Shown: positions 56,176-56,303 of the stretch, piece by piece
Numbering within the stretch: the first letter of the stretch is position 1
How the letters are laid out: each line of letters opens with the position of its first letter
NCBI RefSeq assembly: GCF_022846255.1
Contig: NZ_AP025682.1
Source: Escherichia coli
GTDB taxonomy: Bacteria; Pseudomonadota; Gammaproteobacteria; Enterobacterales; Enterobacteriaceae
DNA length: 64,000 nucleotides
Strand: one strand, 5' to 3'
Program-made: the position numbers and the translations under genes
The notes under the pieces: generated by a model
Told to the model about the DNA's origin: nothing
Database searches by the model: none
Seen by the model: only the letters and a program-made list of their open reading frames with translations

Positions 56176-56203
56176 TTCGTTATGTCTCATGCAAAATAAA
56201 TAT

Positions 56204-56227
56204 CCTCCGGCATAGCCGGAGGTTTTT
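56204..56227 (+). terminator. hairpin plus T-tract: TA-operon terminator and/or IS200 right-end subterminal hairpin
   Basis: cctccggc-ata-gccggagg followed by ttttt, 29 bp after the toxin stop; the assignment is ambiguous. Confidence 0.5.
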
Positions 56228-56303
56228 CAAATGCGCCTATAAGGCTCTCTTACCAGCCGCGCCCTAACAGGCGCACACGATCTGACATTTGCATCCAACT
56301 TCG

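Follow-up and report, generated by a model that had tools for sequence, protein, structure and literature searches.

Does the GC-rich hairpin that stands behind the toxin gene of a TacAT-like toxin-antitoxin (TA) operon in this E. coli belong to the chromosome, as the operon's own terminator, or to the IS200 copy that the operon abuts? The first-pass annotation of the window (the whole 64,000-nt stretch of DNA that was analyzed) had described a hairpin followed by TTTTT at 56204-56227 and had left both origins standing, each implying a different junction. The description of the hairpin proved exact on reading the sequence: it is CCTCCGGC-ATA-GCCGGAGG, followed by the five T's, with a perfect stem of 8 bp (seven of them G-C pairs), a loop of 3 nt and a distance of 28 nt between the toxin stop codon (TAG, 56173-56175) and the start of the stem (Table 1).

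Both strands of the hairpin were scored as terminator-like by a terminator consensus scan. Folded as RNA over 56190-56235, the + strand reaches -17.9 kcal/mol (z = -4.8) and the - strand -18.9 kcal/mol (z = -4.76), and in neither case did any of 200 shuffles do as well; for the full interval 56176-56240 the z-score is -3.13, which 1 of 200 shuffles equalled. The 19-mer that makes up the hairpin occurs a single time in the window (chance expectation, 0 matches). An Rfam scan of 55200-58600 (E <= 1) returned no match at the hairpin; apart from STnc490, which matched at the IS200 left end, it gave just two chance hits below threshold, close to the rne terminator.

Table 1. Features around the hairpin, in window coordinates (RE, right end; LE, left end of IS200).
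Feature	Position	Strand	Details
rne	52073-55258	+	terminator at 55277-55300
TacA-like antitoxin gene	55391-55684	+	Pfam TacA1
GNAT toxin gene	55681-56175	+	Pfam GNAT; 3' end of the operon abuts the IS
Native chromosomal 3' flank of the toxin gene, stop codon to IS	56176-56194	+	ttcgttatgtctcatgcaa; identical to the empty site in SCU-111
IS200C, larger part (695 bp: RE, tnpA, most of LE)	56195-56889	-	matches annotated IS200C in other genomes
Terminal 9 nt of IS200 RE	56195-56203	-	reads ATATTTATT on the top strand up to the junction; last IS base, 56195
IS200 RE subterminal perfect palindrome	56204-56222	-	IS top strand CCTCCGGC-TAT-GCCGGAGG; identical in independent IS200C copies
TTTTT run 3' of the hairpin	56223-56227	+	within IS200; in all IS200C copies
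tnpA, intact, 152-aa Y1 HUH transposase	56304-56762	-	Pfam PF01797 Y1_Tnp, E = 1.7e-37
IS4 target-site duplication, first copy (11 bp)	56879-56889	.	CAGCCTAGCTG; junction read
IS4 (1426 bp), in the IS200 left-end hairpin	56890-58315	-	Pfam Nterm_IS4 + DDE_Tnp_1; annotated IS4 / insG elsewhere with the same junction
IS4 target-site duplication, second copy (11 bp)	58316-58326	.	CAGCCTAGCTG; junction read
IS200C, remaining 16 bp of the left end	58327-58342	-	+ strand GGGGGTTTTCTGTGCAC...; left terminus 58342; compared with intact copies
flgL intrinsic terminator	58343-58376	-	hairpin 58348-58376 and the remaining 5 T (58343-58347); flgL beyond, - strand

By comparison with other genomes, the hairpin lies on the IS side of the junction and is IS-borne. 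When 56195-58342 was removed in silico, the full 795 nt of the rejoined sequence matched 685 genomes gap-free (795 record bases to 795 query bases), the best of these empty-site matches being 99.7% identical; the nearest empty sites, at 99.6-99.7% identity, include those of RM14723 and EPEC E2348/69. The hairpin (CCTCCGGCATAGCCGGAGG) is absent after the toxin gene from all 685 of these E. coli genomes with an uninterrupted toxin-flgL intergenic sequence. In strain SCU-111 (L001), for example, the TA module is followed directly by flgL and the empty site reads ...catgcAAAAAAAtgcccgcc (in a longer read, ...tcatgcAAAAAAAtgcccgcc...); at the same place the window reads ...tcatgcAA[AATAAATATCCTCCGG...CTGTGCAC]AAAAAtgcccgcc, where the bracketed part is the insertion.

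The breakpoints of the surrounding context and the IS200 copies at other loci lead to the same place. With 55260-56300 as the query, the TA-carrying genomes stop matching at window position 56201, and matches to IS200 copies elsewhere, on chromosomes and plasmids, begin at 56191-56195 and reach 100% identity. Starts of IS200 as far left as 56180-56187, which appeared in the best rows of a megablast search, were set aside after inspection of the loci, where the alignments proved to have run on by chance into A/T-rich flanks. Some 28 independent insertions of IS200 (on E. coli chromosomes, plasmid and prophage contigs) have common termini, GTGCAC... and ...ATATTTATT, between unrelated flanks, their common top-strand sequence running from GTGCACAGAAAACCCCCAGC... 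to ...CCTCCGGCTATGCCGGAGGATATTTATT; at these distinct chromosomal, plasmid and prophage sites the same hairpin recurs, and its spacing to tnpA and to the terminus is unchanged. Because the empty sites, the context breakpoints and the independent copies agree, we place the right terminus of IS200 at 56195 and the TA/IS200 junction between 56194 and 56195, a position that the A-run allows to shift equivalently by up to 2 nt, with the hairpin sitting 9 nt inside the element. The first-pass annotation had estimated the right boundary as "near 56195," which is the boundary found here, and its suggestion that the hairpin is IS-borne is borne out: empty sites and independent copies together define an IS200 right end that clearly includes the hairpin.

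The other origin, which would make the hairpin a chromosomal terminator native to the TacAT-like operon and put the IS200 boundary beyond 56228, has in its favor the canonical form of the hairpin, the short distance to the toxin stop and a TTTTT tail on the operon strand, and in form and position after the toxin stop the hairpin is indeed like the intrinsic terminator of a canonical type II TA operon. Such a terminator is native to its locus, however, whereas the present hairpin was brought in by the IS: it is missing from all examined TA-bearing genomes without the IS (contrary to the chromosomal reading of the first-pass annotation), the match to the TA context ends at 56201, IS200C copies at unrelated loci all include the hairpin with its T-run, and the TA-hairpin junction is found in none of 5,426 genomes. 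The empty sites refute the native reading, and we give it virtually no chance of being right. Since these 5,426 complete E. coli genomes do not contain the window's TA/IS200 junction (and thus provide no sister strain for comparison), the insertion is specific to this strain or lineage. As the right-end palindrome of IS200, the hairpin is an already known kind of feature, and it implies no new biology.

The element in the window is the IS200 / IS200C of Salmonella and E. coli, with the same termini, the same length (711 bp, here 56195-56889 plus 58327-58342), the same lack of a target duplication and, at both ends, hairpins of 8 bp and 3 nt. Full-length copies elsewhere measure 708-711 bp (711 in IS200C), and Salmonella IS200 is quoted as 707 bp (PMC4513863) as against the 711 bp found here. 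This copy has IS4 inside its left-end hairpin, and it occupies a site, between the TacAT-like module and flgL, that is unoccupied in the 5,426 complete E. coli genomes. Its TnpA is identical to the annotated IS200C family transposase and carries HIH at residues 61-63 (the HUH motif) as well as Tyr125, the residue changed in the catalytic-dead Y125F mutant (PMC4513863). GTGCAC... and ...ATATTTATT, the two termini, do not form inverted repeats, and there is no target-site duplication, as the 2 + 5 A's on the two sides restore a 7-A run without a gap. An element of 709 bp with a 2-bp AA duplication was considered as well; it is disfavored by the family mechanism and by the base that follows the ATT of ...ATATTTATT, which varies between copies (g, a or t), although the sequence alone cannot strictly separate the two.

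The left end of this copy is interrupted. Intact IS200 copies have the left-end palindrome CCCCCAGC-TAG-GCTGGGGG, and in the window IS4 splits it into 56875-56889 and 58316-58331. The likeness that the first-pass annotation saw between the hairpin and a palindrome at the other IS200 end therefore holds for intact copies but not for the window itself, where IS4 had gone unrecognized and where the palindrome at 56894-56919 is that of IS4; likewise, its count of about 707 bp had begun from an assumed left end near 56902, which is within IS4, the true left end being at 58342. Because IS4 splits the left-end hairpin, this IS200 copy is probably immobile. The Rfam match to STnc490 (the IS200 Hfq-binding sRNA region, art200 / tnpA 5'UTR) is full length, with 120.5 bits at 56772-56895 on the - strand, and it runs 6 nt into IS4, so that the outer end of the RNA region is the IS4 junction.

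The same 2148-bp IS200::IS4 arrangement, with identical junctions and an identical duplication, is present at two other loci, the IS66/Rpn region and hisIE-wzzB (it was also seen in L088, L089 and L090), and its junction, found at no fewer than three unrelated loci, occurs in 219 genomes. The hisIE-wzzB site is occupied by a plain IS200 in 27 genomes, from which it follows that IS4 arrived second there. The three composites share a common IS200 haplotype. Repeated site-specific insertion of IS4 into the left-end palindrome of IS200 (AA-N19-TTTT), or else gene conversion between IS200 copies, is the likeliest explanation; movement of the 2148-bp composite as a unit is not needed at hisIE-wzzB and is possible for the other loci. 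A literature search found no report of IS4 targeting IS200.

What, then, does the hairpin do for the element that carries it? Members of the IS200/IS605 family have subterminal hairpins that are bound by the transposase, without inverted repeats or target duplication (PMC3333891), and IS200 falls in a subgroup with perfect palindromic ends (PMC8266576). We consider it very probable that the hairpin behind the toxin gene is the right-end subterminal palindrome of IS200C and a recognition structure for TnpA, whose binding and cleavage there would follow the family mechanism. Relatives of the element were drawn from 79 viral-contig loci encoding an IS200-like TnpA, and the palindrome (8-bp stem, 3-nt loop) reappears among them, some 80-140 nt beyond the tnpA stop, with proteins as little as 59% identical; a perfect hairpin was not found at the expected place in L083, L084, L046 and L067. 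Homology among the hairpins of these relatives is supported by their constant position, by stems and loops of constant length and by conserved flanking sequence, GAAAAA ahead of the stem and ATATTT behind it.

In an alignment of the right-end stem from 16 distinct IS200-group versions, always of 8 bp with a 3-nt loop, 100% of cells are paired, a figure that is partly built in since the relatives' hairpins were located as perfect palindromes; with slid partners as controls, pairing falls to 35-50% of cells. Compensatory changes, in which both sides of a pair have changed, are seen in 5 of the 8 stem pairs (21 cells), and position 3 is represented by C-G, A-U, U-A and G-C across the versions. 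The covariation score of the stem is 0.492, compared with 0.124 for shuffled alignments, and was reached by none of 500 shuffles. The two ends of an element are also alike: the left-end and right-end 5' arms agree, on average, at 6.56 of 8 positions within an element versus 5.85 when permuted, and none of 10000 permutations reached the former value. Given the conservation of the stem and the covariation of the two ends, together with the family literature, we therefore read the hairpin as the right-end TnpA recognition structure.

An IS-borne hairpin might also act only at the RNA level, ending the tnpA transcript and blocking antisense read-in as a terminator or insulator, without being a transposase site at all. 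The hairpin is terminator-like on both of its strands, its left-end counterpart in IS200 has experimental support as a bidirectional terminator (PMC4513863), and compensatory changes would be expected of an RNA stem just as much as of a protein-binding one. Independent terminators at the two ends, however, would not be expected to be alike and to covary as the left-end and right-end hairpins do, a pattern that is expected if one protein reads both; the family mechanism, moreover, uses subterminal hairpins at both ends (PMC3333891, PMC8266576), and in several relatives the - strand tail after the right-end hairpin is not T-rich (GTGCCTTTT, TGCTGATTA, GTGACTATT). A role confined to RNA is highly improbable on these grounds, and a part in transposition remains the preferred reading.

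As a recognition structure, the hairpin would work in the way described for the IS200/IS605 family: TnpA, a Y1 HUH transposase, would bind 5'-CCTCCGGC-TAT-GCCGGAGG-3' on the single-stranded top strand of the element (the - strand of the window) and would cleave after ...ATATTTATT, at a distance of 9 nt from the 3' side of the stem. The TTTTT of the + strand is AAAAA on the IS top strand, 5' of the foot of the hairpin, where family members have a "guide" sequence; on the IS608 model (PMC8266576), the A-run that precedes each of the two hairpins may guide the choice of the T-rich cleavage and target sites, as AAAA with TT/ATT. IS608 and ISDra2, the mechanistic models of the family, resemble IS200 in several respects: hairpins near both ends, a transposase of the Y1 HUH type, a strand-specific, single-strand "peel and paste" mechanism, cleavage at a distance from the hairpin and a target sequence 5' of the left end (PMC3333891, PMC8266576). 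They differ in their hairpins, which are bulged, imperfect palindromes and not perfect ones like those of IS200.

The origin of the hairpin leaves open a second role, as a terminator for the operon behind which it has come to lie. The toxin of that operon has 7AK7 as its closest solved structure (E = 7.7e-76), and a promoter scan found a strong promoter-like site for the TA operon, ATGACA-18-TATAAT, at 55330-55359. The TA module (window 55301-56194) is accessory: it lies between the rne and flgL terminators in 685 of 5,426 genomes and is absent in K-12. In the uninterrupted locus, a terminator scan of the interval from the toxin gene to flgL scored nothing on the + strand, its only call being the - strand terminator of flgL; the + strand complement of the latter, in SCU-111, has no U-tract and folds weakly. 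In the window, the tails of the hairpin are AUAUUUAUUU on the - strand and UUUUUCAAAU on the + strand. Judging from this form, the hairpin with its UUUUU tail would be the first terminator-like signal met by + strand transcripts leaving the TacAT-like operon, and the RNA of the - strand may end the tnpA transcript.

There is a precedent at the other end of the element: the left-end hairpin of IS200 (nt 12-34) is reported to be a rho-independent terminator that works in both directions and shields the element from impinging transcription (PMC4513863). Its architecture recurs at the right end, with an 8-bp GC-rich stem, a 3-nt loop, an A-run 5' and a T-rich sequence 3', and the two stems are identical at 6 of 8 positions; in our literature search only the left-end hairpin was described as a terminator, and no such description was found for the right-end one. 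It is plausible that the IS hairpin now serves the TA operon as a borrowed terminator, with the chances for and against about evenly balanced. Such a borrowed terminator would be a gain rather than a replacement, because the native TA locus is without a + strand terminator-like site.

It could also be that the hairpin, although an IS-borne TnpA site, is irrelevant to transcription of the TA operon, whose transcripts would then run past it or stop at some other place. Hairpins of terminator-like form are often inefficient, and the U-tract of this one is moderate, with only five U's before CAAAU; on the other hand, its 8-bp stem with seven G-C pairs (-17.9 kcal/mol) and five U's falls in the usual range of working terminators, and a hairpin built in the same way, that of the left end, does terminate transcription (PMC4513863). 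We see this irrelevance as a real prospect, somewhat short of an even chance. A bolder proposal is that this locus has recruited the right-end palindrome as an insulator and a functional terminator in both directions, which would give the TacAT-like operon an efficient terminator, stop convergent read-through among TA, tnpA and flgL and measurably alter the expression of toxin and antitoxin or of flgL in this lineage; we offer this tentatively and think it rather unlikely.

For annotation, the hairpin should not be labelled as the TA operon's own terminator, the junction being fixed between 56194 and 56195, and the IS200 copy should be entered as interrupted by IS4, with its left terminus at 58342. 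The locus is an example of an IS end that supplies a host operon with a preformed terminator-like sequence on its 3' side, a point to bear in mind in comparisons of TA expression across strains.

The place of insertion is itself a terminator. IS200C appears to have inserted, without target duplication, into the T-tract of the flgL terminator at a point 19 nt 3' of the toxin stop codon, shortening that tract from 7 T to 5 T. In all of the approximately 28 independent insertions examined, the IS200 left end comes directly after a GC-rich hairpin and a T-run ending in TT, and this placement after terminator-like sequence agrees with a recent preprint (10.1101/2025.07.22.666184). In one viral contig, L025 (IMGVR_UViG_2814123192_000002), two IS200-like copies lie head to tail, the right end of one abutting the left end of the next (...ATATTTATT / GTGCCCAG...), as would be expected if the T-rich right terminus can itself be a target.
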